Assembly: GCA_965213685.1 (NCBI GenBank)
Contig: CBDBZY010000016.1
Location: 462,800 to 526,799 of the forward strand
Length of the DNA: 64,000 nt
Reading direction: 5' to 3'
Source: a bacterium
Lineage (GTDB): Bacteria; UBA8248
This document shows, in pieces, positions 1 through 33,472 of the stretch. The position numbers were made by a program, and so were the translations under genes. The notes under the pieces were generated by a model. The model had not been told where the DNA came from. It saw only the letters and a program-made list of their open reading frames with translations, and did not search any database. The stretch's first letter is position 1; the number at the start of each line of letters is the position of its first letter.

Positions 1-1373
1 GGATAGTCAGTATTCCCTATGAATATGCAGTCAGTGAAAACTGGATTTGTAATGGCGCCTGTCCAATCTACTGACCGCTCTGATAAGTCCATTGCACTAC
101 CAACTCTGCCAAGGTTGTATAGCCATGAACAGTTGTAGAACAGTAATCTGTTGGTAGCCAGGCTCCTGCTTCTCTCTCTGGCTGTGTCGAAGTATACCCC
201 TCCCCCCCAGTACGCCCAGTTGTGTTGGAAAGTGCAGTTTTGAAAGAGCATGTTATTGAGGCTCATACGGGAATCGTTACTGAAATGGAACCCAAGTTTC
301 ATTCCTCCACCACCTGTAGCTTGGCCAGTTGTTGCAGTAGCGTTGTAGAGGTATGCAGTGTTGTTATATATTATACAGGAGTCCATTGTGAATGTGCTGT
401 TCCAACTCAGATGCTGGAACTCTACAAACACTCCTCCTCCCCACTCCGCCTCATTGTTCTCAAACACACACCTTTCCACTGCCACTGAGCTGTTCTCAAC
501 TTCACTGAAGAACACACTCAGGCCTCCTCCGTGACCGAATGTCAGGTGGTTCGTGTCCTGGGGCAGGAGGTAGATGTACTCCACTGGGTGCCACATGTGC
601 CCACGATTGCCCCCAAACACACACTCACTGATCCTGTACTCCACTCCTGTGCTGTACTGTGGGGGGATGGAGGTGTTGCCTGCGTCACAGTCGCTAGGGA
701 GTTGGGGGTCACAGAAGGGAAATTCGATGTATAGACCCCCTCCACTAGGAACCATTTCATTGTTGGGGGGTCTGTTATAGAGGAAACTGCAGTTGTGGAT
801 GTAGTTGAGTCCACCAGTAGCATACACGGCCATTCCTGTCCCTGTGCTGTTGGTGACACTCACTCCAGTCAGGTTGATGTGCTGACAGAACAGGAAGTAC
901 ACGCCCACAGGAAACTGCATGAAGGAGAAGCTGTGGTCACTGAAGTTACGGCTCGTGCTGTTCTGCAGAGCCCCACAGCCAGAGAAGTGCACATTCTGGA
1001 TAGTGATGCCACTGGACTGGACAAAGCTGAGGCCTGCCCCAGATTCACACGTCACTGTCACCACAGGTCGGGATAACCAATTTACAAATGGGTCAACACC
1101 AGTCAGGGCTATACTAGTTAATCCAGATAAGCTAATCATGTGGTTCAGTGAGTAGTCTCCACTACTCACCTCCACCTGAGTGGAGTTTAGCACTCGCTCA
1201 CTCACAGCATAGGAGAAGGTACGACAAGGGTGGGTGTGGCTTCCACAAGTGACATTGTCACTGGCATTGGGGTTGCTACAGTCCACATACACTGTGTGGT
1301 CATAGTGAGCAAAGGAGAGGGCACTATGCAGCACAGCTGCCACCAGCAGCCAGAACAACCTCTCAGATGTCAT
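1..1373 (-). CDS. Pmp-like beta-helix multi-pass membrane protein, paralog 1 (5' part only; runs off the window start)
   Basis: ATG at 1373 reads MTSERLFWLLVAAVLHSALSFA and is nearly identical to paralogs 2-4 down to position 1 (..GAITNPVFTDCIFIGNTDY). Not in the ORF track, consistent with its stop lying outside the window. Confidence 0.9.
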   Translation of the reverse strand, partial: MTSERLFWLLVAAVLHSALSFAHYDHTVYVDCSNPNASDNVTCGSHTHPCRTFSYAVSERVLNSTQVEVSSGDYSLNHMISLSGLTSIALTGVDPFVNWLSRPVVTVTCESGAGLSFVQSSGITIQNVHFSGCGALQNSTSRNFSDHSFSFMQFPVGVYFLFCQHINLTGVSVTNSTGTGMAVYATGGLNYIHNCSFLYNRPPNNEMVPSGGGLYIEFPFCDPQLPSDCDAGNTSIPPQYSTGVEYRISECVFGGNRGHMWHPVEYIYLLPQDTNHLTFGHGGGLSVFFSEVENSSVAVERCVFENNEAEWGGGVFVEFQHLSWNSTFTMDSCIIYNNTAYLYNATATTGQATGGGGMKLGFHFSNDSRMSLNNMLFQNCTFQHNWAYWGGGVYFDTARERSRSLATNRLLFYNCSWLYNLGRVGSAMDLSERSVDWTGAITNPVFTDCIFIGNTDY

Positions 1374-1889
1374 CACGCTCTTTTTCAATCTAGCAGGACA
1401 ACAAGAGTAGGGCTGATATATGCAATACATTAGCCACTGTATGTGTAAAGCTATATGCACACGTATTACTGCTAATGTCACACTCTCTGAATACAGCGAA
1501 AACAGAACTGTTCTCTTCATAGACGATTGTTGTGTGAGTTGCACCTGTGTAGCAGTGCCCATGGTTCCCTCCCACGTGCTACACAATCACAACACTTTCT
1601 TTCTCATGTGGCCCACAGCACAGCTCAAAATAGCTGTATTATTTGTATTATATGTTGCCCTGCAACTTGTATGGCAAAGGCCTTTGTTAAAGGAACAATG
1701 TCAGTTGCTGTAAATAACATAGTCCGTATGTATAATACCTAAAAGTGCATGGTTTGCTATACGTGACGTATGCTACTTTGTTCTGGGCTAATGCTCACCT
1801 GCTGTGTGTTGAAACGCTCCCTTTTCACGCTGCGTATACACACGTACTGCAGCTTGTAAACTAGCTACTCAGTCCAGTTGAGCCTTATA

Positions 1890-2635: not shown

Positions 2636-2639
2636 TATA

Positions 2640-3819: not shown

Positions 3820-3941
3820 TATAAAATTTCAGTCGTGAACTCCGAAGATTCACATGCCAATCACCCTCTCAGTACCGGCAGGACAAGTAGCTTTTGCACC
3901 ATCCTAGCCTCGTTCCCAGGCTCTTGCGTACAAGGCTAGTA

Positions 3942-5399: not shown

Positions 5400-5781
<382 letters not shown>

Positions 5782-5983
5782 GTAATCTCTAGCACCTAAA
5801 TGGGTGTCTCCTTTGTTTAACCTATACCAAGTGATGAGATTATGTACCAATAGGTCACAGTTCATTGAACCTACTGTATGCAAAATTTCTATATTTTATG
5901 CACTAACAAAAATATTATACTTGCAGAAGAGTGTATTGTGTACATATTGCACACACAGTCTAGTAACAGCTTAACTATCACTG

Positions 5984-8900
5984 CTATTGGTTCCATATGT
6001 TTGGCTGGTTGACTGTCCATATATAGGACTGGTTTGGTGTTGGTGGTTTTCTCTGAACCAGAGGAGACTGGTCTGAGCTCCCTCTTGTGCTGGTCTTGGT
6101 GACACTCTGCTGTGTTGAAGAGCGTGCATAGCTCTGTGAGCTGCTCTGAGCTTCTTCACTTGAGTTGGTGCTGGTGGTGGAGTTAGTGTGCTTGGGTCGG
6201 TAGCGATTCCTCTCGCGGTCCCTCCCAAAAGCTTCCACGCCCTCCACAAAGAGTCGGTATTCCTCATCAGCAGATGACAAAGGAGGGGCTTCAGATGTCT
6301 CCTCATCTGTGTCTTTAGGAAAGGGTACCAGTGGTGACCTCTCAGATGCATTGATACCTATACATCGAGACAGACATGACCTAAAAGACAGTTTGCTGTT
6401 CTTGGCTATTCGGTATATTACATAACAGATCATGTAGAAGAGAGGACAGAAGATGAGGATATACTGAAGTGCAAAGGCCCAACTAGATAGTGGAATGCCT
6501 ATTGCTGTGTAATGGATGTTGTTCATACTGAGAACATTGATCAGTGCAAGGATTCCAAGAATTGTGGCATCAACATTATTGTAGAAGTCTTTCTTGTATG
6601 GTCTGATGACAGCAAATAGGAGAATTCCAACTGTGCACACCAACTGCTGGACAACATATTGCTGAAAATATGTGGAAGTATAGATATAGGAAGTGAATAT
6701 TACTGTGCGCAGAAGGAAATAGAGCCCGGCAAAGTATCGGCAATCTCTTGTTCCATTTGTTCCATCTTTAAAGCAACCTTGGAATGTATCGAGAAACACC
6801 TGCATACGTCCACCAGCTTGGAAAAACTGACCACAACAACCAAGCCTTCTAGTCAGACTCTCTACTAACTTCAGTGGGTAGACGAAGAGGATCAGAGGTG
6901 GGAGTAGTACGAATGTGATCATCACAAACATGGCCATTATGAAGTATGGGATGTGCTCCTTGCCAAGGTATTCTGTGCCTCCTTGAAAATAGAGATGATT
7001 ACCTGCTCTTGGTCCTGTGGAGTCCTGCACAGTTGTAGGAGTGAGCAGGTAGGTAGAAATCACAGTGAACTTGGTATATGAAAGGACAAGAAATGTGGAA
7101 AAAGCATCAATGGTGGACCTATTCAAGTTCCAGCGTCGTTGGAACGAGCCAAAAATACGATGCACTGGTTTACAGAGACAGAAGATTGGCTGTATGCCAC
7201 GTTCATACAGTGACACTGTGCAGTAGAACACCAGTATCAGAAGCAGAGGATAAACAGCAAGGACATACTGTAGAGACAGCATTCCTAGGGTGTCTACATC
7301 AGGGCTGATGCAGAAAGGTGGCATAACAGAAGTGAAAAAGTTCAGATTCCAAATGTCGTATGGTACTTCATAGATCTTTTGCAGAGAATTGGCACTGCTA
7401 GTGACGTTTCTTATAGGGACAGTCTTATCTCCATCTATATCGAATGTTGTTGTTAGAAGTTGAGCAAAAAAGATGAAGCCATTTGCGCTGCCTCTAGTAA
7501 CACTGATGTGGAAGAGGACAACAATGAAGAAGAATATAGTGATAGGGAGGATCTCTAACAGCAGGTAATAGACCCAGTGGTACAGGGCCTGCTTGTGAGT
7601 GCACTTCACACAGTCAAAGGTATTTGAGTTGATGGCAGGGGCATACCCCTTAACACACTGTCCACAAAACATTCCTGTCCTGTTAGCAGGATGGCAGAGC
7701 ACTTGATCTAGCTCAGAACTTTTGTTGGGCAGCTTCATGTACTCCTCCTCCATATGCACAGCAGTGTAGGGACACAGCCCCACAACAAGCTGGCCTGATG
7801 ACTTGTCTATCCCCATCCACTGCCCTCTCCTCAGTTTCACTGAGAAATCCGCCTGATTGCACCTTACCACTCCACCATAGTTACCAGTACACACACACTG
7901 TGTGTTGTTGTGTGTGTCATTCTGAGGGGAAAATCCCGGGGGGCAGGGAAGAATTTCTACTACAATTTCAGTGTAGAGCACTCGAGGATTGATTGTTTCT
8001 ATTGCTAGCAGAGCAGTTGAGTTTGGTTCTCCAGTTAGCTCAACAGTATTGTCTGAAACATAGGTATAGGCACTTGGAATCTGCGCAGTGTCTGGAGAGT
8101 GTGACCACAAGTTGAACACAGCATGAGCAGTTTGGTTTTTCATTCTGTCACCCAAAACCTCAACAGGCATCAACTGTCTCTTCCCCAGTATGACCTCCAT
8201 GTGGTAGGATGAATCATTCCCTGTGTTACTGAAGGCAGCCGGAGCGCTGGATATATCGTCTGAACAGTTACCTCCATCATATTCCCATGCACTGCTCCAA
8301 CAAAACACTTCCTTGCTGGGGTCGGGAACATTTTTCTTGGACATTGGGGTATAGTATGCCCAAAAACAAGGTACAAGAGATGTGCTATATATTGCATTCC
8401 CACCATCGCTGTACAGAGCAGTATTCCCCCTGAAGTAGAAAGTGGCTGTCCAGTTCCACGGCTGTAGTAGAGGGTCACTGTACTGGATGAAGCACGTGCC
8501 AAACAGTATTAACATATGCTGCCCAACAATGTAGGAGTATATGGCACCACCATACTGGCTGGCTTTGTTGTCAATGAATATCATTTGTGTGTAGTTGTAA
8601 ACACGAATGTAGGAGGAGCTATAGAGGGCAATGGCACCGCCAGTCCTGCCCTGGTTTCCAGTGAAGTTAGCGATGCAGTAATCTAAGAAATGCATACCGC
8701 TGTCAACAACAGCCAAAGCCGATCTGTTGTTGTTTTCAAAATGGACACTATTATTAAAATGTAGAGGAAGTTTCTGTGTGTTAACTGTGCCAACGCCTAT
8801 GGGTTCCCCGAGTATGGGCACCACACTGGGATAGTCAGTATTCCCTATGAATATGCAGTCAGTGAAAAGGGGAATTGTGATGGCACCTGTCCAACCTAAT

Positions 8901-10198
8901 GACCACTCTGATAAATGCACAGCACTTCCTACTCTACCCAGATTATGCAGCCACAAACAATTGTGAAACAGCAATCTGTTGGTAGCCAGGCTCCTGCTTC
9001 TCTCTCTGGCTGTATTGAAATATACCCCTCCCCCCCAGTACGCCCAGTTGTGTTGGAAAGTGCAGTTTTCAAAGAGCATGCTATTGAGGCCCATACGAGA
9101 ATCATTAGTAAATTTGTATGAGAGTTTCATTCCTCCACCGCCTGTAGTTTGGCCAGTTGTTGCACTAGCGTTGTGGAGGTATGCAGTGTTGTTATAAACC
9201 CTACAAGAGTCCATTATGAACGTGTTGTTCCAACTCAACTGCTGGAACTCTACAAACACTCCTCCTCCCCACTCTGCCTCATTGTTCTCAAACATACACC
9301 TTTCCACTGCCACTGAGCTGTTCTCAACTTCACTGAAGAACACACTCAGGCCTCCTCCGTGACCGAATGTCAGGTGGTTCGTGTCCTGGGGCAGGAGGTA
9401 GATGTACTCCACTGGGTGCCACATGTGCCCACGATTGCCCCCAAACACACACTCACTGATCCTGTACTCCACTCCTGTGCTGTACTGTGGGGGGATGGAG
9501 GTGTTGCCTGCGTCACAGTCGCTAGGGAGTTGGGGGTCACAGAAGGGAAATTCGATGTATAGACCCCCTCCACTGGGAACCATTTCATTGTTGGGGGGTC
9601 TGTTATAGAGGAAACTGCAGTTGTGGATGTAGTTGAGTCCACCAGTAGCATACACGGCCATTCCTGTCCCTGTGCTGTTGGTGACACTTACTCCAGTCAG
9701 GTTGATGTGCTGACAGAACAGGAAGTACACGCCCACAGGAAACTGCATGAAGGAGAAGCTGTGGTCACTGAAGTTACGGCTCGTGCTGTTCTGCAGAGCC
9801 CCACAGCCAGAGAAGTGTACATTCTGGATAGTGATGTCACTGGACTGGACAAAGCTGAGGCCTGCCCCAGATTCACACGTCACTGTCACCACAGGTTGGG
9901 ATAACCAATTTACAAATGGGTCACCAGTCAGGGCTATATTGGTAAATCCAGATAAGCTAATCATGTGGTTCAGTGAGTAGTCTCCACTACTCACCTCCAC
10001 CTGAGTGGAGTTTAGCACTCGCTCACTCACAGCATAGGAGAAGGTACAACAAGGGTGGGTGTGGCTTCCACAAGTGGCATTGTCAGTGGCATTGGTGTTG
10101 CTACAGTCCACATACACTGTGTGGTCATAGTGAGCAAAGGAGAGGGCACTATGAAGCACAGCTGCCACCAGCAGCCAGAACAACCTCTCAGATGTCAT
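5984..10198 (-). CDS. Pmp-like beta-helix multi-pass membrane protein, paralog 2 (frameshifted extreme C-terminus)
   Basis: Intronless ORF with ATG at 10198. Signal peptide; VYVD..CGS...PCxTF start motif; repeated FxxN..GGA/GGG motifs; CPPGF and CGxCxxGY Cys-rich stalk; about 9 hydrophobic segments; Ser/Thr-rich tail. Confidence 0.9.
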   Translation of the reverse strand: MTSERLFWLLVAAVLHSALSFAHYDHTVYVDCSNTNATDNATCGSHTHPCCTFSYAVSERVLNSTQVEVSSGDYSLNHMISLSGFTNIALTGDPFVNWLSQPVVTVTCESGAGLSFVQSSDITIQNVHFSGCGALQNSTSRNFSDHSFSFMQFPVGVYFLFCQHINLTGVSVTNSTGTGMAVYATGGLNYIHNCSFLYNRPPNNEMVPSGGGLYIEFPFCDPQLPSDCDAGNTSIPPQYSTGVEYRISECVFGGNRGHMWHPVEYIYLLPQDTNHLTFGHGGGLSVFFSEVENSSVAVERCMFENNEAEWGGGVFVEFQQLSWNNTFIMDSCRVYNNTAYLHNASATTGQTTGGGGMKLSYKFTNDSRMGLNSMLFENCTFQHNWAYWGGGVYFNTARERSRSLATNRLLFHNCLWLHNLGRVGSAVHLSEWSLGWTGAITIPLFTDCIFIGNTDYPSVVPILGEPIGVGTVNTQKLPLHFNNSVHFENNNRSALAVVDSGMHFLDYCIANFTGNQGRTGGAIALYSSSYIRVYNYTQMIFIDNKASQYGGAIYSYIVGQHMLILFGTCFIQYSDPLLQPWNWTATFYFRGNTALYSDGGNAIYSTSLVPCFWAYYTPMSKKNVPDPSKEVFCWSSAWEYDGGNCSDDISSAPAAFSNTGNDSSYHMEVILGKRQLMPVEVLGDRMKNQTAHAVFNLWSHSPDTAQIPSAYTYVSDNTVELTGEPNSTALLAIETINPRVLYTEIVVEILPCPPGFSPQNDTHNNTQCVCTGNYGGVVRCNQADFSVKLRRGQWMGIDKSSGQLVVGLCPYTAVHMEEEYMKLPNKSSELDQVLCHPANRTGMFCGQCVKGYAPAINSNTFDCVKCTHKQALYHWVYYLLLEILPITIFFFIVVLFHISVTRGSANGFIFFAQLLTTTFDIDGDKTVPIRNVTSSANSLQKIYEVPYDIWNLNFFTSVMPPFCISPDVDTLGMLSLQYVLAVYPLLLILVFYCTVSLYERGIQPIFCLCKPVHRIFGSFQRRWNLNRSTIDAFSTFLVLSYTKFTVISTYLLTPTTVQDSTGPRAGNHLYFQGGTEYLGKEHIPYFIMAMFVMITFVLLPPLILFVYPLKLVESLTRRLGCCGQFFQAGGRMQVFLDTFQGCFKDGTNGTRDCRYFAGLYFLLRTVIFTSYIYTSTYFQQYVVQQLVCTVGILLFAVIRPYKKDFYNNVDATILGILALINVLSMNNIHYTAIGIPLSSWAFALQYILIFCPLFYMICYVIYRIAKNSKLSFRSCLSRCIGINASERSPLVPFPKDTDEETSEAPPLSSADEEYRLFVEGVEAFGRDRERNRYRPKHTNSTTSTNSSEEAQSSSQSYARSSTQQSVTKTSTRGSSDQSPLVQRKPPTPNQSYIWTVNQPNIWNQ

Positions 10199-11267
10199 CA
10201 CGCTCTTCTTCAATCTAGCAGGACAACAAGAGGAGGCTGATATACAATACAGTAATTAGCCACCCTATGTGTAAGGCTCCATGCACACTCTGCTAATGTC
10301 ACACTCAACACAGTAAAAACAGAACTGTTCTCTTTAGTGTTATGTGAGTTGTACCTGTGTAGCAGTGCCCATGGTTCCCTCCATGTGCTACACAATCACA
10401 ACACTTCCTTATCATGTGGCCCACAGCACAGCCCAAAACAGCTGTGATGATATGTATTACCATGCACGGATAGTTTACTATCCCATGGTATTACATGGCG
10501 TAAAGGTATTTGCTAAAGAAACAATGCCATTTTTGCTGTGAATACCATAGTCCGTATGTAAAGTGCATGGTTTGCTATACGTGACGTATGCTACTTTGTT
10601 CTGGGCTCACCTGCTGTGTGTTGAAACGCTCCCTTTTCACGTTACGTACACACGTACTGCAGCTTGTAAACTAGCTACTCAGTCCAGTTGAGCCCTATAA
10701 AATTTCAGTCGCGAGAACAAGAAGTTATTGTACATGTCACAAGTAGAACATACAAAACATGGAGTACGCAGCGACGTTGAGTATGCATGCGATGAGAGGC
10801 TGCAACGCGTAGAGTCTACATGTACTTTGCTTACCTACCAAGTACGACTCGTTTATGCTGAGCCTCTTTCACTGTGCAAATTCTGGCCCTCTTGAAGCAC
10901 TGGTATGCGTTTGCAAGTTGAATGGTGCGCCTAGAAGTAGCACACCGCCATACCATACCGCACCCTTTTGGTTGGAATTGGAATCGGAAACAAACGGAAG
11001 TGATTCCGGAATATTGAGCACAGTGCGCGCGCGATGCACGCTAGTGGCATGCGGTACTAGCTACAGTGGCAACTGCTATAAAGTACCCTTTGTTTAGCCT
11101 ACCAAGTGATGAGATTCTGCACCAATAGCTATAGGTTACAGTTCATTGAACCTACTGTATGCATTATGTGCACACTTTTTATATGCACTAACAAAAATGA
11201 TAGAAATACAATCAAACCTGCAGAAGAGTGTATTGTGTACATATTGCACACACAGTCTAGTAACAGC

Positions 11268-14200
11268 TTAACTATCACTGCTATTGGTTCCATATGTTCG
11301 GCTGGTTGACTGTCCATAGGACTGGTTTGGTGTTGGTGGTGTTCTCTGAACCAGAGGAGGCTGGTCTGAGCTCCCTCTTGTGCTGGTCTTGGTGACACTC
11401 TGCTGCGTTGAAGAGTGTGCATAGCTCTGTGAGCTACTCTGAGCCTCTTCACTTGAGTTGGTGCTGGTGGTGGAGTTAGTGTGCTTGGGTCGGTAGCGAT
11501 TCCTCTCGCGGTCCCTCCCAAAAGCTTCCACGCCCTCCACAAAGAGTCGGTATTCCTCATCAGCAGATGACAAAGGAGGGGCTTCAGATGTCTCATCATC
11601 TGTGTCTTTAGGAAGGGGCACCAGTGGTGAGCTCTCAGACACATTGGTACCCATACATCGAGACAGACATGACCTAAAAGACTGGTCGTTGTTCTTGGCA
11701 ATTCGGTATATTACATAACAGATCATGTAGAAGAGAGGGCAGAAGATGAGGATATACTGAAGTGCAAAGGCCCAACCAGAGAGTGGAATACCTATTGATG
11801 TGTAGTGGATGTTGTACATACTGAAGACATTGATCAGTGCAAGGATTCCAAAAATCGTGGCATCAACATTATTGTAGAAGTCTTTCTTGTATGGTCTGAT
11901 GACAGCAAATAGGAGAATTCCAATTGTGCACACCAACTGCTGGACAACGTATTGCTGAAACCATGTGGAAGTATAGACATAGGAAGTGAATATTACTGTG
12001 CGCAGAAGGAAATAGAGCCCGGCAAAGTATCGGCAATCTCTTGTTCCATTTGTTCCATCTTTGAAGCAACCTTGGAATGTATCGAGAAACACCTGCATAC
12101 GTCCACCAGCTTGGAAAAACTGACCACAGCAGCCAAACCTTATAGTCAGACTCTCTACTAACTTCAGTGGGTAGACGAAGAGGATCAGAGGTGGGAGCAG
12201 TACGAATGTGATGATCACAAACATGGCCATTATGAAGTATGGGATGTGCTCCTTGCCAAGGTATTCTGTGCCTCCTTGAAAATAGAGATGATTACCTGTT
12301 CTTGGTCCTGTGGAGTCTTGGATGGTTGTAGGAGTGAGGAGGTAGATAGAAACCATGGTGAATTTGGTATACGAAAGGACAAGAAATGTGGAAAAGGCGT
12401 CAATGGTGGATCGATTCAAATTCCAGCGTCGTTGGAATGAGCCAAAAATACGATGCACTGGTTTACAGAGACAGAAGATTGGCTGTATGCCACGTTCATA
12501 CAGTGACACTGTGCAGTAGAACACCAGTATCAGAAGCAGAGGATAAACAGCAAGGACATACTGTAGAGACAGCACTCCTAGGGTGTCTACATCAGGGCTG
12601 ATGCAGAAAGGTGGCACAACAGAAGTGAAAAAGTTTAGATTCCAAATATCGTATGGTACTTCATAGATTTTCTGTAGAGTAATGGCACTGCTAGTGACAT
12701 TTTTTAAAGGGACAGTCTTGTCTCCATCTATTTCAAACGTTGTTGTCAGCAGCTGAGCAAAGAAGATGAATCCATTAGCGCTGCCTCTGGTGACACTGAT
12801 GTGGAAGAAGATGGCGATGAAGAAGAAAATAGTGACAGGGAGGATCTCTAACAGCAGGTAATAGACCCAGTGGTACAGGGCCTGCTTGTGAGTGCACTTC
12901 ACACAGTCAAAGGTATTTGAGTTGATTGCAGGGGCATAACCTTTTTGACACTGTCCACAAAACATGCCCTGCCTGTTGACAGGATGGCAAAAGAACTCAT
13001 CCAGCTCAGTGCTTCTGTTGGGCAATTTCACATACTCTGCATTTGTCACCATGGTAGTGTAAGAACTTGTTCCAACCACAAGCTTGCCAGTTGATCTATC
13101 TACCCCCATCCACAGCCCTCTCCTCAGTTCTGCTGTGAAGTCTTCCTGGTTACATCTTAATACTCCACCATAGTTACCAGTACACACACAGAGTGTGTTG
13201 TTGTGTGTGTCATTCTGAGGGGAAAATCCCGGGGGGCAGGGAAGAATTTCTACTACAATTTCAGTGTAGAGTACTCGAGGATTGATTGTTTCTATTGCTA
13301 GCAGAGCAGTTGAGTTTGGTTCTCCAGTTAGCTCAACAGTATTGTCTGAAACATAGGTATAGGCACTTGGAATCTGCGCAGTGTCTGGAGAGTGTGACCA
13401 CAAGTTGAACACAGCATGAGCAGTTTGGTTTTTCATTCTATCGCCCAAAACCTCAACAGGCATCAACTGTCTCTTCCCCAGTATGACCTCCATGTGGTAG
13501 GATGAATCATTCCCTGTGTTACTGAAGGCAGCCGGAGCGCTGGATATATCATCTGAACAGTTACCTCCATCATATTCCCATGCGCTGCTCCAACAAAACA
13601 CATCCCGTTGAGGGTCGGGAACTTTCTTCTTGGACATTGGGGTATAGTATCCCCAAAGACAAGGTACAAGAGATGTGCTATATATTGCATTCCCACCATC
13701 ACTGTACAGAGCAGTATTCCCCCTGAAGTAGAAAGTGGCTGTCCAGTTCCATGGCTGTAGTAGAGGGTCACTGTACTGGATGAAGCATGTGCCAAACAGC
13801 ATTAACATATGCTGCCCAACAATGTAGGAGTATATGGCGCCACCATACTGGCCAGCTATGTTGTCAATGAATATCATTTGTGTGTAGTTGTAAACACGAA
13901 TGTAGGAGGAGCTATAGAGAGCAATGGCACCACCAGTCCTGCCCTGGTTTCCAGTGAAGTTAGCAATGCAGTAATCTAAGAAATGCACACCGCTGTCAAC
14001 AACAGCCAAAGCCGATCGGTTATTGTTTTCAAAATGGACACTGTTATTAAAATGTAGAGGAAGTTTCTGTGTGTTAACTGTGCCAACGCCTATGGGCTCC
14101 CCGAGTATGGACACCACACTGGGATAGTCAGTATTCCCTATGAATATGCAGTCAGTGAAAAGGGGAACTGTGATGGCACCTGTCCAACCTAATGACCACT

Positions 14201-15497
14201 CTGATAAATGCACAGCACTTCCTACTCTACCCAGATTATGCAGCCACGAACAATTGTGAAACAGCAATCTGTTGGTAGCCAGGCTCCTGCTTCTCTCTCT
14301 GGCTGTATTGAAGTATACCCCTCCCCCCCAGTACGCCCAGTTGTGTTGGAAAGTGCAGTTTTGAAAGAGCATGTTATTGAGGCCCATACGAGAATCATTA
14401 GTAAATTTGTATGCGAGTTTCATTCCTCCACCGCCTGTAGTTTGGCCAGTTGTTGCAGTAGCGTTGTAGAGGTATGCAGTGTTGTTATAAACTCTACAAG
14501 AGTCCATTATGAACGTGTTGTTCCAACTCAAATGCTGGAACTCTACAAACACTCCTCCTCCCCACTCTGCCTCATTGTTTTCAAACACACACCTTTCCAC
14601 TGCCACTGAGCTGTTCTCAACTTCACTGAAGAACACACTCAGGCCTCCTCCGTGACCGAATGTCAGGTGGTTGGTGTCCTGGGGCAGGAGGTAGATGTAC
14701 TCCACTGGGTGCCACATGTGCCCACGATTGCCCCCAAACACACACTCACTGATCCTGTACTCCACTCCTGTGCTGTACTGTGGGGGGATGGAGGTGGTGC
14801 CTGCGTCACAGTCGCTAGGGAGTTGGGGGTCACAGAAGGGAAATTCGATGTATAGACCCCCTCCACTGGGAACCATTTCATTGTTGGGGGGTCTGTTGTA
14901 GAGGAAAGTGCAGTTGTTGATGTAGTTGAGTCCACCAGTAGCATACACGGCCATTCCTGTCCCTGTGCTGTTGGTGACACTCACTCCAGTCAGGTTGATG
15001 TGCTGACAGAACAGGAAGTACACGCCCACAGGAAACTGCATGAAGGAGAAGCTGTGGTCACTGAAGTTACGGCTCGTGCTGTTCTGCAGAGCCCCACAGC
15101 CAGAGAAGTGTACATTCTGGATAGTGATGTCACTGGACTGGACAAAGCTGAGGCCTGCCCCAGATTCACACGTCACTGTCACCACAGCTTGGGATAACCC
15201 ATTTACAAATGGGTCAACACCAGTCAGGGCTATATTGGTAAATCCAGATAAGCTAATCATGTGGTTCAGTGAGTAGTCTCCACTACTCACCTCCACCTGA
15301 GTGGAGTTTAGCACTCGCTCACTCACAGCATAGGAGAAGGTACGACAAGGGTGGGTGTGGCTTCCACAAGTGGCATTGTCACTGGCATTGGGGTTGCTAC
15401 AGTCCACATATACTGTGTGCTCATAGTGAGCAAAGGAGAGGGCACTATGCAGCACAGCTGCCACCAGCAACCAGAACAACCTCTCAGATGTCATCAT
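11268..15497 (-). CDS. Pmp-like beta-helix multi-pass membrane protein, paralog 3
   Basis: 1409-aa intronless ORF with the same architecture; the tandem unit is about 5.29 kb. Confidence 0.92.
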   Translation of the reverse strand: MMTSERLFWLLVAAVLHSALSFAHYEHTVYVDCSNPNASDNATCGSHTHPCRTFSYAVSERVLNSTQVEVSSGDYSLNHMISLSGFTNIALTGVDPFVNGLSQAVVTVTCESGAGLSFVQSSDITIQNVHFSGCGALQNSTSRNFSDHSFSFMQFPVGVYFLFCQHINLTGVSVTNSTGTGMAVYATGGLNYINNCTFLYNRPPNNEMVPSGGGLYIEFPFCDPQLPSDCDAGTTSIPPQYSTGVEYRISECVFGGNRGHMWHPVEYIYLLPQDTNHLTFGHGGGLSVFFSEVENSSVAVERCVFENNEAEWGGGVFVEFQHLSWNNTFIMDSCRVYNNTAYLYNATATTGQTTGGGGMKLAYKFTNDSRMGLNNMLFQNCTFQHNWAYWGGGVYFNTARERSRSLATNRLLFHNCSWLHNLGRVGSAVHLSEWSLGWTGAITVPLFTDCIFIGNTDYPSVVSILGEPIGVGTVNTQKLPLHFNNSVHFENNNRSALAVVDSGVHFLDYCIANFTGNQGRTGGAIALYSSSYIRVYNYTQMIFIDNIAGQYGGAIYSYIVGQHMLMLFGTCFIQYSDPLLQPWNWTATFYFRGNTALYSDGGNAIYSTSLVPCLWGYYTPMSKKKVPDPQRDVFCWSSAWEYDGGNCSDDISSAPAAFSNTGNDSSYHMEVILGKRQLMPVEVLGDRMKNQTAHAVFNLWSHSPDTAQIPSAYTYVSDNTVELTGEPNSTALLAIETINPRVLYTEIVVEILPCPPGFSPQNDTHNNTLCVCTGNYGGVLRCNQEDFTAELRRGLWMGVDRSTGKLVVGTSSYTTMVTNAEYVKLPNRSTELDEFFCHPVNRQGMFCGQCQKGYAPAINSNTFDCVKCTHKQALYHWVYYLLLEILPVTIFFFIAIFFHISVTRGSANGFIFFAQLLTTTFEIDGDKTVPLKNVTSSAITLQKIYEVPYDIWNLNFFTSVVPPFCISPDVDTLGVLSLQYVLAVYPLLLILVFYCTVSLYERGIQPIFCLCKPVHRIFGSFQRRWNLNRSTIDAFSTFLVLSYTKFTMVSIYLLTPTTIQDSTGPRTGNHLYFQGGTEYLGKEHIPYFIMAMFVIITFVLLPPLILFVYPLKLVESLTIRFGCCGQFFQAGGRMQVFLDTFQGCFKDGTNGTRDCRYFAGLYFLLRTVIFTSYVYTSTWFQQYVVQQLVCTIGILLFAVIRPYKKDFYNNVDATIFGILALINVFSMYNIHYTSIGIPLSGWAFALQYILIFCPLFYMICYVIYRIAKNNDQSFRSCLSRCMGTNVSESSPLVPLPKDTDDETSEAPPLSSADEEYRLFVEGVEAFGRDRERNRYRPKHTNSTTSTNSSEEAQSSSQSYAHSSTQQSVTKTSTRGSSDQPPLVQRTPPTPNQSYGQSTSRTYGTNSSDS

Positions 15498-16558
15498 GCT
15501 CTTCTTTAATCTAGCAGGACAACAAGAGGAGGGCTGATATATACAATACAGTAATTAGCCACTCTATGTGTAAGGCTCCATGCACACTCTGCTAATGTCA
15601 CACTCAACACAGTAAAAACAGAACTGTTCTCTTTAGTGTTATGTTGTACCTGTGTAGCAGTGCCCATGGTTCCCTCCATGTGCTACACAATCACAACACT
15701 TCCTTATCATGTGCCCCACAGCACAGCCCAAAACAGCTGTGATGATATGTATTACCATGCACGGATAGTTTACTATCCCATGGTATTACATGGCGTAAAG
15801 GTATTTGCTAAAGAAACAATGCCATTTTTGCTGTGAATACCATAGTCCGTATGTAAAGTGCATGGTTTGCTATACGTGATGTATGCTACTTTGTTCTGGG
15901 CTCACCTGCTGTGTGTTGAAACGCTCCCTTTTCACGTTACGTACACACGCACTGCAGCTTGTAAACTAGCTACTCAGTCCAGTTGAGCCCTATAAAATTT
16001 CAGTCGCGAGAACAAGAAGTTATTGTACATGTCACAAGTAGAACATACAAAACCAAACATGGAGTACGCAGCGACGTTGAGTATGCGATGAGAGGCTGCA
16101 ACGCGTAGAGTCTACATGTACTTTGCTTACCTACCAAGTACGACTCGTTTATGCTGAGCCTCTTTCACTGTGCAAATTCTGGCCCTCTTGAAGCACTGGT
16201 ATGCGTTTGCAAGTTGAATGGTGCGCCTAGAAGTAGCACACCGCCATACCGCACCCTTTTGGTTGGAATTGGAATAGGAAACAAACGGAAGTGATTCCGG
16301 AATATTGAGCACAGTGCGCGCGCGATGCACGCTAGTGGCATGCGGTACTAGCTACAGTGGCAACTGCTATATAGTACCCTTTGTTTAGCCTACCAAGTGA
16401 TGAGATTCTGCACCAATAGCTATAGATTACAGTTCATTGAACCTATTGTATGCATTATGTGCACACTTTTTATATGCACTAACAAAAATGATAGAAATAC
16501 AATCAAACCTGCAGAGGAGTGTATTGTGTACATATTGCACACACAGTCTAGTAAGAGC

Positions 16559-19500
16559 TTAACTATCACTGCTAATGGTTCCATATGTTCGGCTGGTTGA
16601 CTGTCCATAGGACTGGTTTGGTGTTGGTGGTGTTCTCTGAACCAGAGGAGGCTGGTCTGAGCTCCCTCTTGTGCTGGTCTTGGTGACACTCTGCTGTGTT
16701 GAAGAGTATGCATAGCTCTGTGAGCTACTCTGAGCTGCTTCACTTGAGTTGGTGCTGGTGGTGGAGTTAGTGTGCTTGGGTCGGTAGCGATTCCTCTCGC
16801 GGTCCCTCCCAAAAGCTTCCACGCCCTCCACAAAGAGTCGGTATTCCTCATCAGCAGATGACAAAGGAGGGGCTTCAGATGTCTCGTCATCTGTGTCTTT
16901 AGGAAGGGGCACCAGTGGTGACCTCTCAGGCACATTGGTACCCATACATCGAGACAGACATGACCTAAAAGACTGGTCGTTGTTCTTGACTATTCGGTAT
17001 ATTACATAACAGATCATGTAGAAGAGAGGACAGAAGATGAGGAGATACTGAAGTGCAAAGGCCCAACTAGTGAGTGGGATATCCATTGCAGCATAAAAGA
17101 TGTTGTACATACTGAGGACATTGATCAGTGCAAGGATTCCAAGAATTGTGGCATCAACATTATTGTAGAAGTCTTTCTTGTATGGTCTGATGACAGCAAA
17201 TAGGAGAATTCCAATTGTGCACACCAACTGCTGGACAACGTACTGCTGGAACCAGATGCCAGTATAAATGAAAGAGGTGAATATTATTGTGCGCAGAAGG
17301 AAGTAGAGCCCGGCAAAGTATCGGCAATCTCTTGTTCCGTTTGTTCCATCTTTAAAGCAACCTTGGAATGTATCGAGAAACACCTGCATACGTCCACCAG
17401 CTTGGAAAAACTGACCACAACAACCGAGCCTTCTAGTCAGACTCTCTACTAACTTCAGTGGGTAGACGAAGAGGATCAGAGGTGGGAGCAGTACGAATGT
17501 GATCATCACAAACATGGCCATTATGAAGTATGGGATGTGCTCCTTGCCAAGGTATTCTGTGCCTCCTTGATAGTAGAGATGATGACCTGTTCTTGGTCCT
17601 GTGGAGTCCTGCACAGTTGTAGGAGTGAGCAGGTAGGTAGAAACCACAGTGAACTTGGTATACGAAAGGACAAGAAATGTGGAAAAAGCATCAATGGTGG
17701 ATCTATTCAAGTTCCAGCGTCGTTGGAATGAGCCAAAAATACGATGCACTGGCTTACAGAGACAGAAGATTGGCTGTATGCCACGTTCATACAGTGACAC
17801 TGTGCAGTAGAACACCAGTATCAGAAGCAGAGGATAAACAGCAAGGACATAGTGTAGAGACAGCACTCCTAGGGTGTCTACATCAGGGCTGATGCAGAAA
17901 GGTGGCACAACGGAAGTAAAAAAGTTCAGATTCCAAATGTCGTATGGTACTTCATAGATCTTTTGCAGAGTAATGGCACTGCTAGTGACGTTTCTTATAG
18001 GGACAGTCTTATCTCCATCTATATCAAATGTTGTTGTTAGAAGTTGAGCAAAAAAGATGAAGCCATTAGCGCTGCCTCGAGTAACACTGATGTGGAAGAG
18101 GACAACAATGAAGAAGAATATAGTGATAGGGAGGATCTCTAACAGCAGGTAATAGACCCAGTGGTACAGGGCCTGCTTGTGAGTGCACTTCACACAGTCA
18201 AAGGTATTTGAGTTGATGGCAGGGGCATACCCCTTAACACACTGTCCACAAAACATGCCTTGCCTGTTGACAGGATGGCAGAGCAGTTCATCCAGCCCAG
18301 AACTTTTGTTGGGCAGCTTCACGTACTCCTCCTCCATATGCACAGCAGTGTAGGGACACATCCCCACAACAAGCTGGTCAGACGACTCGTCTATCCCCAT
18401 CCACTGCCCTCTCCTCAGTCTCACTGAGAAATCCGCCTGATTGCACCTCACCACTCCCCCATAGTTACCAGTACACACACACTGTGTGTTGTTGTGTGTG
18501 TCATTCTGAGGGGAAAATCCCGGGGGGCAGGGAAGAATTTCTACTACAATTTCAGTGTAGAGCACTCGAGGATTGATTGTTTCTATTGCTAGCAGAGCAG
18601 TTGAGTTTGGTTCTCCAGTTAGCTCAACAGTATTGTCTGAAACATAGGTATAGGCACTTGGAATCTGCGCAGTGTCTGGAGAGTGTGACCACAAGTTGAA
18701 CACAGCATGAGCAGTTTGGTTTTTCATTCTGTCACCCAAAACCTCAACAGGCATCAACTGTCTCTTCCCCAGTATGACCTCCATGTGGTAGGATGAATCA
18801 TTCCCTGTGTTACTGAAGGCAGCCGGAGCGCTAGATATATCATCTGAACAGTTACCTCCATCATATTCCCATGCACTGTTCCAACAAAACACATCCCGTC
18901 GAGGGTCGGGAACTTTCTTCTTGGACATTGGGGTATAGTATCCCCAAAAACAAGGTACAAGAGATGTGCCATATATAGCATTCCCACCATCGCTGTACAG
19001 AGCAGTATTCCCTTTAAAGTAGAAACTGGCAGTCCAGTTCCACGGCTGTAATGTAGGGTCACTGTACTGGATGAAGCACGTGCCAAAAAAGAATAACATA
19101 TGCTGCCCAACAGCATATGAGTATATGGCACCACCATACTGGCCAGCTATGTTGTCAATGAATATCATTTGTGTGTGGTCGTAAATACGAATGTAGGAGG
19201 AGCTATAGAGGGCAATGGCACCGCCAGTCCTGCCCTGGTTTCCAGTGAAGTTAGCAATGCAGTTTTCTAAAAAATGCACACCACTGTCAACAACAGCCAA
19301 AGCTGATCTGTTATTGTTTTCAAAATGAACACTGTTATTAAAATTCAGAGGAACAGTGTGTGTGTTAACTGTGCCAACACCTATTGGTTGACCAAGAGTC
19401 GACACCACACTGGGATAGTCATTGTTTCCTATGAATATGCAGTCAGTGAAAACTGGATTTGTAATGGCACCTGTCCAACCTACTGACCACTCTGATAAGT

Positions 19501-20797
19501 CCATTGCACTACCAACTCTGCCAAGGTTGTATAGCCATGAACAGTCATAGAACAGTAATCTGTTGGTAGCCAGGCTCCTGCTTCTCTCTCTGGCTGTGTC
19601 GAAGTATACCCCTCCCCCCCAGTATGCCCAGTTGTGTTGGAAAGTGCAGTTTTGAAAAAGCATGGTATTGAGGCTCATACGGGAATCGTTACTGAAATGG
19701 AACCCAAGTTTCATTCCTCCACCACCTGTAGTTTGGCCAGTTGTTGCACTAGCGTTGTAGAGGTATGCAGTGTTGTTATAAACTCTACAGGAGTCCATTA
19801 TGAACATGTTGTTCCAACTGAACTGCTGGAACTCTACAAACACTCCTCCTCCCCACTCTGCCTCATTGTTCTCAAACACACACCTTTCCACTGCCACTGA
19901 GCTGTTCTCAACTTCACTGAAGAACACACTCAGGCCTCCTCCGTGACCGAATGTCAGGTGGTTCGTGTCCTGGGGCAGGAGGTAGATGTACTCCACTGGG
20001 TGCCACATGTGCCCACGATTGCCCCCAAACACACACTCACTGATCCTGTACTCCACTCCTGTGCTGTACTGTGGGGGGATGGAGGTGGTGCCTGCGTCAC
20101 AGTCACTAGGGAGTTGGGGGTCGCAGAAGGGAAATTCGATGTATAGACCCCCTCCACTAGGAACAATTTCATTGTTGGGGGGTCTGTTATAGAGGAAACT
20201 GCAGTTTTGGATGTAGTTGAGTCCACCAGTAGCATACACAGCCATTCCTGTCCCTGTGCTGTTGGTGACACTCACTCCAGTCAGGTTGATGTGCTGACAG
20301 AACAGGAAGTACACGCCCACAGGAAACTGCATGAAGGAGAAGCTGTTGTCACTGAAGTTACGGCTCGTGCTGTTCTGCAGAGCCCCACAGCCGGAGAAGT
20401 GCACATTCTGGATAGTGATGTCACTGGACTGGACAAAGCTGAGGCCTGCCCCAGATTCACATGTCACTGTTACCACAGGTTGGGATGACCCATTTACAAA
20501 TGGGTCGACACCAGTCAGGGCTATATTGGTAAGTCCAGACAAGCTGATCATGTGGTTCAGTGAGTAGTCTCCACTGCTGACCACCACCTGAGTAAAGTTC
20601 AGCACTCGCTCACTCACTGCATAAGAGAAGGTACAGCAAGGGTGGGTGTGGCTTCCACAAGTGACATCATCAGTGGCATTGGGGTTGCTACAGTCCACAT
20701 ACACTGTGTGGTCATAGGCCAATGCCAGAGACAGAAGCAATGGAGTTAGAAATATTGTGGCCACCCAAAAAGTGTGCACTGTTTGTACTGCTGCCAT
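16559..20797 (-). CDS. Pmp-like beta-helix multi-pass membrane protein, paralog 4 (distinct signal peptide)
   Basis: First ATG at 20797 (MAAVQTVHTFWVATIFLTPLLLSLALA), just downstream of a splice acceptor (tttgctactgcag). The mature region is nearly identical to paralogs 1-3. Confidence 0.9.
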   Translation of the reverse strand: MAAVQTVHTFWVATIFLTPLLLSLALAYDHTVYVDCSNPNATDDVTCGSHTHPCCTFSYAVSERVLNFTQVVVSSGDYSLNHMISLSGLTNIALTGVDPFVNGSSQPVVTVTCESGAGLSFVQSSDITIQNVHFSGCGALQNSTSRNFSDNSFSFMQFPVGVYFLFCQHINLTGVSVTNSTGTGMAVYATGGLNYIQNCSFLYNRPPNNEIVPSGGGLYIEFPFCDPQLPSDCDAGTTSIPPQYSTGVEYRISECVFGGNRGHMWHPVEYIYLLPQDTNHLTFGHGGGLSVFFSEVENSSVAVERCVFENNEAEWGGGVFVEFQQFSWNNMFIMDSCRVYNNTAYLYNASATTGQTTGGGGMKLGFHFSNDSRMSLNTMLFQNCTFQHNWAYWGGGVYFDTARERSRSLATNRLLFYDCSWLYNLGRVGSAMDLSEWSVGWTGAITNPVFTDCIFIGNNDYPSVVSTLGQPIGVGTVNTHTVPLNFNNSVHFENNNRSALAVVDSGVHFLENCIANFTGNQGRTGGAIALYSSSYIRIYDHTQMIFIDNIAGQYGGAIYSYAVGQHMLFFFGTCFIQYSDPTLQPWNWTASFYFKGNTALYSDGGNAIYGTSLVPCFWGYYTPMSKKKVPDPRRDVFCWNSAWEYDGGNCSDDISSAPAAFSNTGNDSSYHMEVILGKRQLMPVEVLGDRMKNQTAHAVFNLWSHSPDTAQIPSAYTYVSDNTVELTGEPNSTALLAIETINPRVLYTEIVVEILPCPPGFSPQNDTHNNTQCVCTGNYGGVVRCNQADFSVRLRRGQWMGIDESSDQLVVGMCPYTAVHMEEEYVKLPNKSSGLDELLCHPVNRQGMFCGQCVKGYAPAINSNTFDCVKCTHKQALYHWVYYLLLEILPITIFFFIVVLFHISVTRGSANGFIFFAQLLTTTFDIDGDKTVPIRNVTSSAITLQKIYEVPYDIWNLNFFTSVVPPFCISPDVDTLGVLSLHYVLAVYPLLLILVFYCTVSLYERGIQPIFCLCKPVHRIFGSFQRRWNLNRSTIDAFSTFLVLSYTKFTVVSTYLLTPTTVQDSTGPRTGHHLYYQGGTEYLGKEHIPYFIMAMFVMITFVLLPPLILFVYPLKLVESLTRRLGCCGQFFQAGGRMQVFLDTFQGCFKDGTNGTRDCRYFAGLYFLLRTIIFTSFIYTGIWFQQYVVQQLVCTIGILLFAVIRPYKKDFYNNVDATILGILALINVLSMYNIFYAAMDIPLTSWAFALQYLLIFCPLFYMICYVIYRIVKNNDQSFRSCLSRCMGTNVPERSPLVPLPKDTDDETSEAPPLSSADEEYRLFVEGVEAFGRDRERNRYRPKHTNSTTSTNSSEAAQSSSQSYAYSSTQQSVTKTSTRGSSDQPPLVQRTPPTPNQSYGQSTSRTYGTISSDS

Positions 20798-32100: not shown

Positions 32101-33472
32101 AGACTTCCTCGTGGCAGCCTATCCTCTCATTCTCATTTTCCTCTTCTATGGTGTGGTCTCTCTCTATAATCGAGGTATCCAGCCAGTCTACTGCCTGTGT
32201 CGTCCCGTGCATAACCTGTTTGCCCGGTTTCAACACAAGTGGAACCTCCAACACTCAACCATTGACGCCTTTGCGACGTTTCTTGTTCTTTCATACAACA
32301 AATTCACGGCGACCTCTGTGTACCTCCTGACCCCTGAGCCCTTGGTGGACAGCTCTGGCAATGGGGTGACCAATGTATTGTATCTTGATGGCAATGTCCA
32401 TTTCCTTAGCAATGAACACCTTCCCTACTTCTTCCTAGCTCTGTGCATTCTGCTGACCATAGTGATACTGCCTCCTCTCCTCCTCCTCGTCTATCCACTC
32501 AGACTGATTCAGAGGTTGTCAAACTGGTTTGGTTGCAGAAGAGCTTGTTGTCAGATCAACACTGGCGGCCGAATGCAGATGTTCCTCGACACATTCCAAG
32601 GCTGCTTCAAGGATGGCACCAATGGGACAAGAGACTACAGATACTTTGCTGGTGTCTACTTCATCCTCCGAATCCTCTTCTTCACACTCTATGCCTACTC
32701 AAATACTTGGATACAACAGTTTTTTGTACAGCAGCTGCTCTGCACGGCGGCTGTGCTCCTCTTCGCAGTTTTCAGACCATACAAAAAGGACTTCTATAAT
32801 AACCTCGATGCGACCATATTTGGTGTGTTGGCCCTCATTAATGCTGTGAGTATGTACAATATATGCTTCACCTCACTAGATCAGCCGTTGTCCAAGTGGG
32901 CATTTGCCATGCAATACATTTTGATATTCCTTCCTCTGATGTACATGGTGGCCTATGTCATGCGGGCTGTGGTGAGGAATAACAAGCAGAAGCTGAAGAA
33001 GTGTTTTAAAAAGGTTTTCCGTTTCAGTTCTACTGATGAAAACACTCCTATCCTCACTAATCAGCGTGATGAAGGAACTTTGGATGCTGAATTTCTGGCA
33101 TTTGCAGCTGCTATAGACGATCAGTCTCACCAGGTTATCTGTGTCACACCACCAAGGGGGCACAACACGGGGAGAAATTCTGGTCCCCAGGGGGCTGGTT
33201 TGGATGTGTCTACTAGCACAACTTCATCTCATGGCACTACTAGTAGTACTGATCTCTATTGTGAGAGAGGTGAGGGAGGAAGGAGACCAGAGAGTGAGCA
33301 CAAGACAGACAACCTCAGGGAGGGAGAAGAGCAGAGCATTGGAAGAGGAGGGGACAGCGGAAAGAGAGGAGGGAATAGGGGTCATGAGGCGCGGAAGGAT
33401 GGTGAGCTCTCTCCATCAGGAAGTGGCCATAATCAAAACAAAGATGGCAAAAGCACTGATGAAGATCCATGA
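29153..33472 (+). CDS. Pmp-like beta-helix multi-pass membrane protein, paralog 6
   Basis: ATG at 29153 (MASERLFWLL) after the acceptor ttattctgctag. It has the most divergent central ectodomain, and its TM region is close to paralog 5. Confidence 0.92.
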   Translation: MASERLFWLLVAAVLHSALSFAHYDHTVYVDCSNTNATDNATCGSHTHPCRTFSYAVSERVLNSTQVVVSSGDYSLNHTISLSGLTNIALTGVDPFVNGSSQAVVTVTCESGAGLSFVQSSGITIQNVHFCGCGALQNSTSRNFSDHSFSFMQFPVGVYFLFCQHINLTGVSVTNSTGTGMAVYATGGLNYIHNCTFLENKPSRFGGGGLYVEFPYCSPTNQTGCTTIQDNEYNSNASYTISESLFSGNVALEPEASIHESQYNFLPLDPHYHNTAGHGGGIALYLCRANDIVISLTECKIEHNKAYFGGGIVVSFEEYSVDTRVNIVSSTISDNHCVYRSAFGGSGGGMMVLFKFSYQASHTHNSMSVSHSHFTKNTAYFGGGSVVKASPEMEQTDPTNSVYFNECVWSGNYGTVGAALLASAYNISAKRGALLKPVFESCTFENNTGDIPGIVTADYLPIAFSTNVKFFHNGNSSQASSPLTIDQTSVDFLENCQATFHHNKAAYGGAISLHGHAFMTVHRNTSLTFSHNYAQRAGGAIYQNPTSTGLLSNGHCFVQYMDGSVHPKDWETNFVFDFNRENVHTSDPECNAMVLGSLIPCIWNGYTYSRSQNETVLSKVFCKDRNNWTFRSNSTNCGCSNQTRTLPNRIMANISLNVIPGLRSPLNITLLDDYSKNVTKYAVLNVWPATNSSISLPPNSFYITDNSLVMYGESMNNGTLDVDTLPPRHLFASVPVHFQQCPPGFVQTNKDGHRPTYSSVDLSQNVRELAKCVCDESYGGRVKCSEAAFTAKLQRGLWMGVDPSLGGDLSKQLLVCISPYTASAMDSQYVELPNNTADLDKLLCQPVGREGIMCGRCRQGYGLAVNTKQIQCVRCSDNQAYYMWVFYILSQLLPITIMFLIFVLLNVSTTTGPANAFILFAQLLTTALDIEGDGTVHVDSITSHYDALEQAYIIPYDIWNLNFFFFPPTCLSPYLSTQAFLSLDFLVAAYPLILIFLFYGVVSLYNRGIQPVYCLCRPVHNLFARFQHKWNLQHSTIDAFATFLVLSYNKFTATSVYLLTPEPLVDSSGNGVTNVLYLDGNVHFLSNEHLPYFFLALCILLTIVILPPLLLLVYPLRLIQRLSNWFGCRRACCQINTGGRMQMFLDTFQGCFKDGTNGTRDYRYFAGVYFILRILFFTLYAYSNTWIQQFFVQQLLCTAAVLLFAVFRPYKKDFYNNLDATIFGVLALINAVSMYNICFTSLDQPLSKWAFAMQYILIFLPLMYMVAYVMRAVVRNNKQKLKKCFKKVFRFSSTDENTPILTNQRDEGTLDAEFLAFAAAIDDQSHQVICVTPPRGHNTGRNSGPQGAGLDVSTSTTSSHGTTSSTDLYCERGEGGRRPESEHKTDNLREGEEQSIGRGGDSGKRGGNRGHEARKDGELSPSGSGHNQNKDGKSTDEDP

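Follow-up and report, generated by a model that had tools for sequence, protein, structure and literature searches.

The 64,000-nucleotide stretch analysed here, referred to as the window, comprises positions 462,800 to 526,799 of contig CBDBZY010000016.1 in assembly GCA_965213685.1, which is classified as a bacterium (UBA8248). The window holds DNA of a eukaryotic host that was wrongly binned into a "bacterial" genome, and its left half carries a cluster of single-exon paralogs that belong to a real, very large family without a name or description in the sources searched. Each of these proteins combines a signal peptide, a predicted right-handed beta-helix, a Cys-rich stalk, a predicted nine-helix membrane module and a disordered tail. 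The reading that we favour, which still falls somewhat short of being probable, is that the cluster consists of functional genes whose products are type-I-oriented, heavily N-glycosylated, receptor-like surface proteins in which a ligand-binding helix is coupled to the membrane module, the host being probably a sponge.

The cluster consists of seven genes, designated g0 to g6. Their coordinates, and those of the other features discussed, are collected in Table 1, where C16 is the 527-kb contig that contains the window (C16:462800-526799). Five complete single-exon open reading frames (ORFs) that run from ATG to stop and code for 1404-1439 amino acids (aa) were found in the left half of the window. 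The g1 ORF, cut by the window edge, is complete on the full contig (C16:460087-464361); its true start is likely the Met at window position 1373, which would provide a signal peptide as in the paralogs. With the addition of the more distant g0, the cluster on the full contig comprises seven genes within 47 kb, all of them ORFs of 1359-1439 aa without interruption. The g4 and g5 genes are arranged head-to-head with a spacer of 1.35 kb. No further ORF of at least 300 aa was found anywhere in the 64-kb window. The original prediction, made from the letters of the window alone, had proposed a tandemly expanded set of six or more intronless paralogs. The five complete copies, the completion of g1 beyond the window, the seventh gene on the contig and the three tandem units of ~5.28 kb all agree with it.

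The ectodomain of g2, the reference copy, adopts a right-handed beta-helix in its AlphaFold2 (AF2) model. Residues 1-760 were modelled with 52 aligned relatives, and the resulting structure was all-beta according to DSSP, with a predicted local distance difference test score (pLDDT) of 89.9 and a predicted template modelling score (pTM) of 0.89. The AF2 model of g2 has an N-terminal helix at residues 2-19, and in the linker that follows the beta-helix there are strands at residues 638-749 with pLDDT mostly above 80. When the ectodomain was compared with the PDB using Foldseek, 35 matches were obtained at E≤1e-3, and all those listed are right-handed beta-helix proteins, including the AgaBb alpha-1,3-galactosidase (8yk1, E = 8.4e-7), PL6 alginate lyases, lacto-N-biosidases, phage tailspikes, Pel9A and the adhesin PfbA. 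The probabilities of these matches reach 1.00 and their identities are 7-13%. A beta-helical ectodomain had been set beforehand as one of the points on which the original prediction should stand or fall, and both the model and the structural matches speak for it.

The Pfam profiles and the repeat motifs are consistent with this fold. Chlam_PMP (PF02415) was found above its cut-off in all six window proteins (25.5-33.2 bits vs 20.6), and Beta_helix (PF13229) in four of the six, being unlisted for both plus-strand genes, g5 and g6. Motifs were counted in the ectodomains of all seven genes and in 500 shuffles of each. The sequon NxS/T occurs 21-30 times per ectodomain (shuffle means 9.6-13.8), a number reached by none of the 500 shuffles, and FxxN occurs 9-13 times (shuffle means 3.3-4.1; reached by 0-4 of 500). 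The glycine motif GG[AG][ILVMF] is present 6-7 times (shuffle means 0.2-0.3), again reached by no shuffle. The repeats described originally were therefore recovered as far as FxxN and NxS/T are concerned, whereas strict GGA[ILV] is present only twice per protein and the majority of the glycine motifs are GGG. Alignments of 41 and 52 long forms show Gly, Asn or Cys in almost every invariant column of the ectodomain, and E216 is the only near-invariant charged residue. Judged from the alignments, these columns are the Asn ladder, Gly turns and disulfides of the solenoid. Such a pattern, with its single charged residue, is easier to reconcile with a scaffold or binder than with an enzyme, although the weight of this argument is mild.

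The stalk and the membrane module were modelled together from 44 aligned regions of long and short relatives (pLDDT 87.7, pTM 0.87). Over the C-terminal 540 residues, the model consists of a beta-hairpin stalk followed by 13 alpha-helices and one extracellular beta-hairpin. The multi-pass module thus sits behind the Cys-rich stalk, as had been anticipated. In the stalk, residues C835, C845, C848, C863 and R840 are invariant in 44/44 relatives. The profile DUF7630 (PF24633) scored 11.3-14.8 bits in five of the six window proteins, below its gathering score of 27 bits, and matched 14 of the 44 relatives at E≤1 (best 0.001), all below threshold; the stalk is probably related to DUF7630 at this sub-threshold level. 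The putative membrane spans of g2 are located at residues 868-896, 903-922, 970-999, 1025-1052, 1083-1106, 1154-1173, 1177-1198, 1204-1232 and 1239-1268. From the model, we infer nine spans with the N terminus outside and the C terminus inside, a topology read by eye from the AF2 helices and the loop charges rather than with a dedicated predictor. The loops after the first span carry 20 Lys and Arg residues inside vs 5 outside, which fits the positive-inside rule. About nine hydrophobic segments had been counted originally; the AF2 model together with the loop charges yields nine, but simple hydropathy alone detects just 5-7 strongly hydrophobic segments.

Several residues of the module are highly conserved among the 44 relatives: R1154 and P1200 in all of them, R1164, H1082 and C963 in 43, K1144 in 40, Q913 in 39 and K1043 in 34. 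R1164 is located inside a membrane span. Searches with this region returned little. Pfam identified no family in the 44 module sequences beyond the sub-threshold DUF7630, and across ten family representatives the sole match above cut-off was Chlam_PMP, in one of them. A PDB sequence search with a single protein had no matches at E≤1. The module profile retrieved five weak PDB rows (E = 0.25-9.6), zinc-ribbon ribosomal proteins aligned over the stalk, which were discarded as noise from the Cys pattern. Foldseek found no PDB match at E≤1e-3 for the stalk and module folded together, an absence that is no proof of a new fold. The model shows no ordered structure for the cytosolic tail, which begins with pLDDT values below 50 and diverges fast between paralogs, and a short acidic-aromatic stretch followed by G-R-D...Y-x-P recurs in the tails of relatives.

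The relatives of the cluster are numerous. Of 4072 candidates, 293 proteins matched the module region of g2 at E≤1e-3, and the best 120 of these are 869-1519 aa long, mostly 1300-1500 aa. A profile of the module matched 11,591 clusters (50% identity) at E≤1e-3, 8,612 at 1e-10 and 3,586 at 1e-30; the best 150 of the 11,591 are mostly short proteins of 450-700 aa. Within 76 metagenome loci, the short forms examined are complete single-exon genes, often in tandem; each has its own signal peptide, and only 50-125 residues precede the stalk. Complete short genes that have no helix indicate that the module is a unit in its own right, more than a mere anchor. In a module tree of 50 rows, the long/short label requires two changes (shuffle mean 15.9; none of 500 shuffles as low). 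Midpoint rooting puts the short forms inside the long ones, an arrangement that depends on this provisional root. Two tandem, deeply diverged relatives on another contig of the assembly, C41, carry a helix that differs in type from that of the cluster (Beta_helix 2.7e-31, NosD 8.6e-26). At least 5,281 proteins belong to this subtype at E≤1e-3 (8,000 candidates scored), and their module identity is 63-77% among the matches listed below the first. The presence of the same module behind quite a different type of helix suggests that the pairing of helix and module is old and has been retained.

Where names were visible, the only ones among the relatives were "hypothetical protein" and "predicted outer membrane repeat protein". 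No paper on the family was found in the literature searched, in which "DUF7630" was also absent; the supplements of sponge genome papers lay outside this search and could hold family lists. The original expectation that uncharacterised relatives exist is amply confirmed by the 11,591 module clusters, none named where names were visible, and no characterised ortholog was found in the PDB, protein databases or literature searched, also as expected. One family copy (C64:818940-820373, minus strand) has six in-frame stops (2 TGA, 3 TAG and 1 TAA) and is likely a pseudogene by its sequence; it adjoins an intact short form at C64:812731-814650.

Identity among the paralogs shifts abruptly along the gene. 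Over the first 330 residues, g1 to g5 are 88-97% identical to one another and 65-71% identical to g6. In the second half of the helix, g2-g4 share 52% identity with g5 and 32% with g6, while in the membrane module they share 59% with g5 and g6, which are 89% identical to each other. The g5 gene is a mosaic, its N-terminal third being of the g2 type and its stalk, membrane spans and tail of the g6 type. Synonymous divergence (dS) within single pairs varies up to ~20-fold between segments; for g2 and g3 it rises from 0.03 in the N-terminal part to 0.58 in the stalk. The tail of g1 resembles that of g0, and against g2-g4 it shows a nonsynonymous divergence (dN) of 1.18-1.26 with saturated dS. The segment-wise shifts in dS and identity form the pattern that gene conversion or unequal exchange would leave behind. 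Every folded region has a dN/dS of 0.11-0.46 in the pairs whose dS is not saturated, and values so far below 1 argue that the copies are kept by selection; among g2-g4 the tail values are 0.5-1.3. The ectodomain had been described as variable, and its second half is indeed the most different part, but the region-wide dN/dS is 0.17-0.30 there, indicative of purifying rather than diversifying selection. As far as these comparisons go, the ectodomains seem to vary through the exchange of segments between old lineages. We propose that tandem duplication enlarges the cluster and that segment swaps between paralogs diversify it.

The assembly had been scored as a prokaryotic genome, 94.19% complete and 3.68% contaminated, and its contigs are of two kinds. 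A set of 49 contigs (3.07 Mb) has 61-69% GC and, in most cases, an ORF density of at least 0.9. The other 22 contigs (4.90 Mb), including that of the window, have 33-54% GC, and the large ones have ORF densities of 0.2-0.5. All family members are on low-GC contigs. Neither the module nor the helix had a match at E≤1e-3 on the 49 high-GC contigs, a result that disfavours a bacterial origin within the bin. Exon-sized Pfam matches (Table 1) are present in the right half of the window, amid long purine/pyrimidine-rich, low-complexity DNA, and this half reads as ordinary intron-bearing eukaryotic genes beside the intron-free cluster. Sponge metagenome runs contain 21-35% of the words sampled from g2, and the nearest Atlas clusters, taken as leads, are labelled "commonest Porifera" and "Cnidaria"; on these grounds we assign the host to the sponges with moderate confidence. 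What counts as a "prokaryotic" reference genome carries ~4.9 Mb of host DNA.

We infer surface location, ligand binding, coupling and signalling for the cluster proteins, and a receptor function is plausible. In the mechanism that we envisage, the rigid beta-helix of ~600 residues would bind a ligand outside the cell, for which a polysaccharide or the surface of a microbe or cell is the likeliest candidate. The beta-rich linker and the disulfide-locked stalk would couple the helix mechanically to the nine-helix module, and this module, with its conserved polar core (Q913, K1043, H1082, R1154 and R1164), could relay the event to the cytosol by a conformational change or by a flux of ions or solutes. 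A conserved loop, F-x-G-C-[YF]-K-D-G...D-C-R-x-F, and the short tail motif could engage cytosolic partners. Class C and adhesion G-protein-coupled receptors (GPCRs) offer an analogy only: their large ectodomain, too, binds ligands and is joined through a Cys-rich connector to a bundle of helices, with a variable tail behind it. One of the six proteins showed a faint match to NCD3G (E = 0.45). The cluster proteins are not demonstrably GPCRs or TRP-like proteins.

Three observations weigh against a receptor of this kind. The Foldseek TM-scores of the helix are low (0.13-0.29), as expected for long solenoids. Many complete short genes have no helix, so the module has its own task, perhaps transport instead of signalling. 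In addition, dN/dS for the ectodomain as a whole is below 1, and the diversifying signature usual in recognition receptors was not seen in this region-level test.

An ion channel or mechanosensor is one alternative, in which the module is a remote relative of the fungal, TRP-like Pkd2/Flc family (PF06011) that conducts cations and the helix is a tether or gate that reports pull or contact with the matrix. The outline is similar: the AlphaFold model of Schizosaccharomyces pombe Pkd2, as described in 10.1101/2022.08.11.503631, shows a signal peptide, an extracellular domain, a nine-helix domain of 405 aa and a mostly disordered cytosolic tail of 135 aa, to be compared with our module of 408 aa and nine helices and a tail of ~130 aa. 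This likeness, which extends to Pkd2/Trp663/Flc proteins, is one of architecture only. Two Atlas feature searches placed the proteins near named clusters with 12-15% PF06011 members (scores 0.92 and 0.83, leads only), and the near-invariant Arg within a membrane helix (R1164, 43/44) would suit a channel. However, the PF06011 profile matched none of the 44 module sequences at E≤1, and a six-frame search of the assembly at E≤10 picked up no family locus, its single match (E = 2.53) lying elsewhere, on C18. The ectodomain here is a predicted beta-helix with a Cys-rich stalk and not an Ig/ML-like lipid-binding domain. A possible remote link to the Pkd2/Flc nine-helix channels is only a lead, and we consider the channel unlikely.

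The proteins could also act in adhesion or in self/non-self recognition, the helix attaching to a cell, matrix or microbe and the module mainly anchoring or sorting it. The Pmp-type repeats lend themselves to this view. The repeats of chlamydial polymorphic membrane proteins (Pmps) form beta-helix coils, according to two papers (PMC11166332, PMC10715098), the first of which describes Pmps as adhesins. The cluster proteins resemble Pmps in their FxxN and GGx repeats and in the Chlam_PMP matches. Unlike Pmps, none of the six has an autotransporter beta-barrel or a Pmp middle domain in Pfam, and they possess instead a eukaryotic signal peptide, N-glycosylation sequons, a Cys-rich stalk and nine predicted alpha-helical spans; having no barrel, they are not members of the chlamydial family. 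A precedent for a eukaryote that joined Pmp-type repeats to an anchor of its own is found in trichomonads, whose Pmp-like proteins, according to PMC6701047, form an expanded family with N-terminal Pmp-type repeats and a eukaryotic single-span anchor, and raised adhesion when expressed. The likeness is by description only, and those proteins have one span and endocytic tail motifs where ours have nine predicted helices, a Cys-rich stalk and another tail motif. The adhesin PfbA is among the Foldseek matches, and tandem mosaic paralogs are typical of recognition loci. Nonetheless, a conserved module of 408 aa with nine helices and invariant polar residues far exceeds the needs of an anchor, a function for which the trichomonad proteins, as described, manage with a single span (PMC6701047), and the helix-less short forms are numerous. 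A role confined to adhesion or recognition is, in our judgement, also unlikely.

A membrane-tethered carbohydrate-active enzyme, with the helix as a lyase or glycosidase and the module as its anchor or as a mover of product, is very unlikely. Most of the top fold matches are enzymes (8yk1, E = 8.4e-7; PL6; lacto-N-biosidases; Pel9A), and the cluster proteins share the fold class of beta-helix carbohydrate enzymes and phage tailspikes by both Foldseek and Pfam Beta_helix. However, such enzyme matches are generic for the fold, and the proteins differ from these enzymes and tailspikes in their low identity (9-13%), in their fusion to a polytopic module and in the apparent lack of conserved catalytic residues in the alignments, in which no acidic/basic constellation accompanies the invariant Gly, Asn and Cys and only E216 is near-invariant. 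Nor was a carbohydrate-active enzyme family found by Pfam in any of the six proteins. Finally, decaying retro-copies or an assembly artefact are hardly credible: the genes are intronless and lie among repeats, a relative on C64 has six stops and the assembly is a mixed bin, but the seven ORFs are intact, dN/dS is well below 1 and pieces at least 99% alike are present in contigs of four independent runs.

Table 1. Positions of the cluster genes, the parts of g2 and other features (window numbering unless a contig is given).
Feature	Position	Strand	Remarks
g0, seventh, more distant member	C16:449008-453087		outside the window, same contig
g1, 5' part (520 aa up to the window edge)	3-1562	-	ORF runs off the left edge; Pfam Beta_helix 7.6e-12, Chlam_PMP 5e-6
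g2, 1404 aa	5984-10198	-	reference copy, P0001
g2 signal peptide (~residues 1-22)	10133-10198	-	read from the translation; putative cleavage site
g2 predicted right-handed beta-helix (~residues 25-620)	8339-10126	-	FxxN/GGx coils and Asn ladder
g2 beta-rich linker domain (residues 621-745)	7964-8338	-	between helix and stalk
g2 Cys-rich stalk (residues 746-867)	7598-7963	-	beta-hairpins; AF2 strands 12-121 of the model
g2 predicted nine-helix membrane module (residues 868-1275, 408 aa)	6374-7597	-
g2 cytosolic tail (residues 1276-1404) and stop codon	5984-6373	-	disordered, Ser/Thr-rich
g3, 1409 aa	11268-15497	-
g4, 1412 aa	16559-20797	-	P0003; signal peptide differs
g5, 1439 aa	22152-26471	+	P0002
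g6, 1439 aa	29153-33472	+	P0018 denotes this gene read from an earlier start
Three tandem units of ~5.28 kb each (g2, g3, g4 and spacers)	5810-20717		93.7% identical over 9.6 kb
HpcH/HpaI aldolase exon match	36982-37605	-	Pfam 9.9e-6
CYRI Rac1-binding domain exon match	42975-43787	+	Pfam 9.1e-8
RNA polymerase III Rpc34 exon match	50068-50700	+	Pfam 6.6e-17
L078 and L079, two tandem deeply diverged relatives	C41:150697-155055, 156843-160364		NosD/PbH1-type helix before the same module

The surroundings of the cluster are rich in repeats. A (CA)n microsatellite of ~128 bp (window 5607-5734) lies 250 bp downstream of the g2 stop. A dispersed repeat, probably a short mobile element, is located just upstream of g2 (10350-10600), g3 (15645-15895) and g1 (1540-1782); it has 26 BLAST matches on low-GC contigs (15 on C64, 6 on C16, 4 on C41 and 1 on C56), and in run X1 its summed contig depth is ~35,900 vs ~65-950 across the gene bins. 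A contig of 2,379 bases and depth 235 (run X9, record 24) begins at window position 5897, 87 bases past the g2 stop. The loose letters on it resemble a sequencing adapter, and the position is not readable as a transcript end. Upstream of the cluster, two ORFs of 417 aa (C16:405551-406804 and 425566-426819) lie 20 kb apart and have identical first 50 residues, which suggests a further segmental duplication. Pfam gave no match for the flanking ORFs C16:455884-457497, 405551-406804 and 438807-439946; the first had been guessed to be a reverse transcriptase from a YADD-type motif, an assignment that was dropped for want of a Pfam match. In the right half of the window, positions 34240-59947 (e.g., 48155-49397) consist of dense low-complexity DNA with strong strand skew and extended stretches of (AC)n, (CT)n and (CCTC)n, and include a G/A-rich array whose units, 115-285 bp long, are built around a conserved core of ~70 bp. 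A direct duplication of ~700 bp (60359-61067 and 61079-61753) is 91% identical.

Sponges live with dense microbial communities, and to our knowledge their known recognition repertoires hold nothing like this beta-helix/nine-helix family. A wider form of the receptor-like reading, possible yet doubtful, is that the cluster belongs to a huge unrecognised surface superfamily of early animals, in which an unsolved nine-helix fold was ancestrally fused to a beta-helix. In a symbiont-rich animal, this superfamily would be the main repertoire of the host for sensing microbial and matrix glycans, diversified by gene conversion, and the module may be the animal branch of the fungal Pkd2/Flc lineage. 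With 11,591 clusters and a module that matches no solved fold, the family is a considerable gap in the present picture of animal membrane biology. A module that signals or conducts ions would represent a new class of receptor or channel in early-branching animals, and possibly a bridge to Pkd2/Flc.

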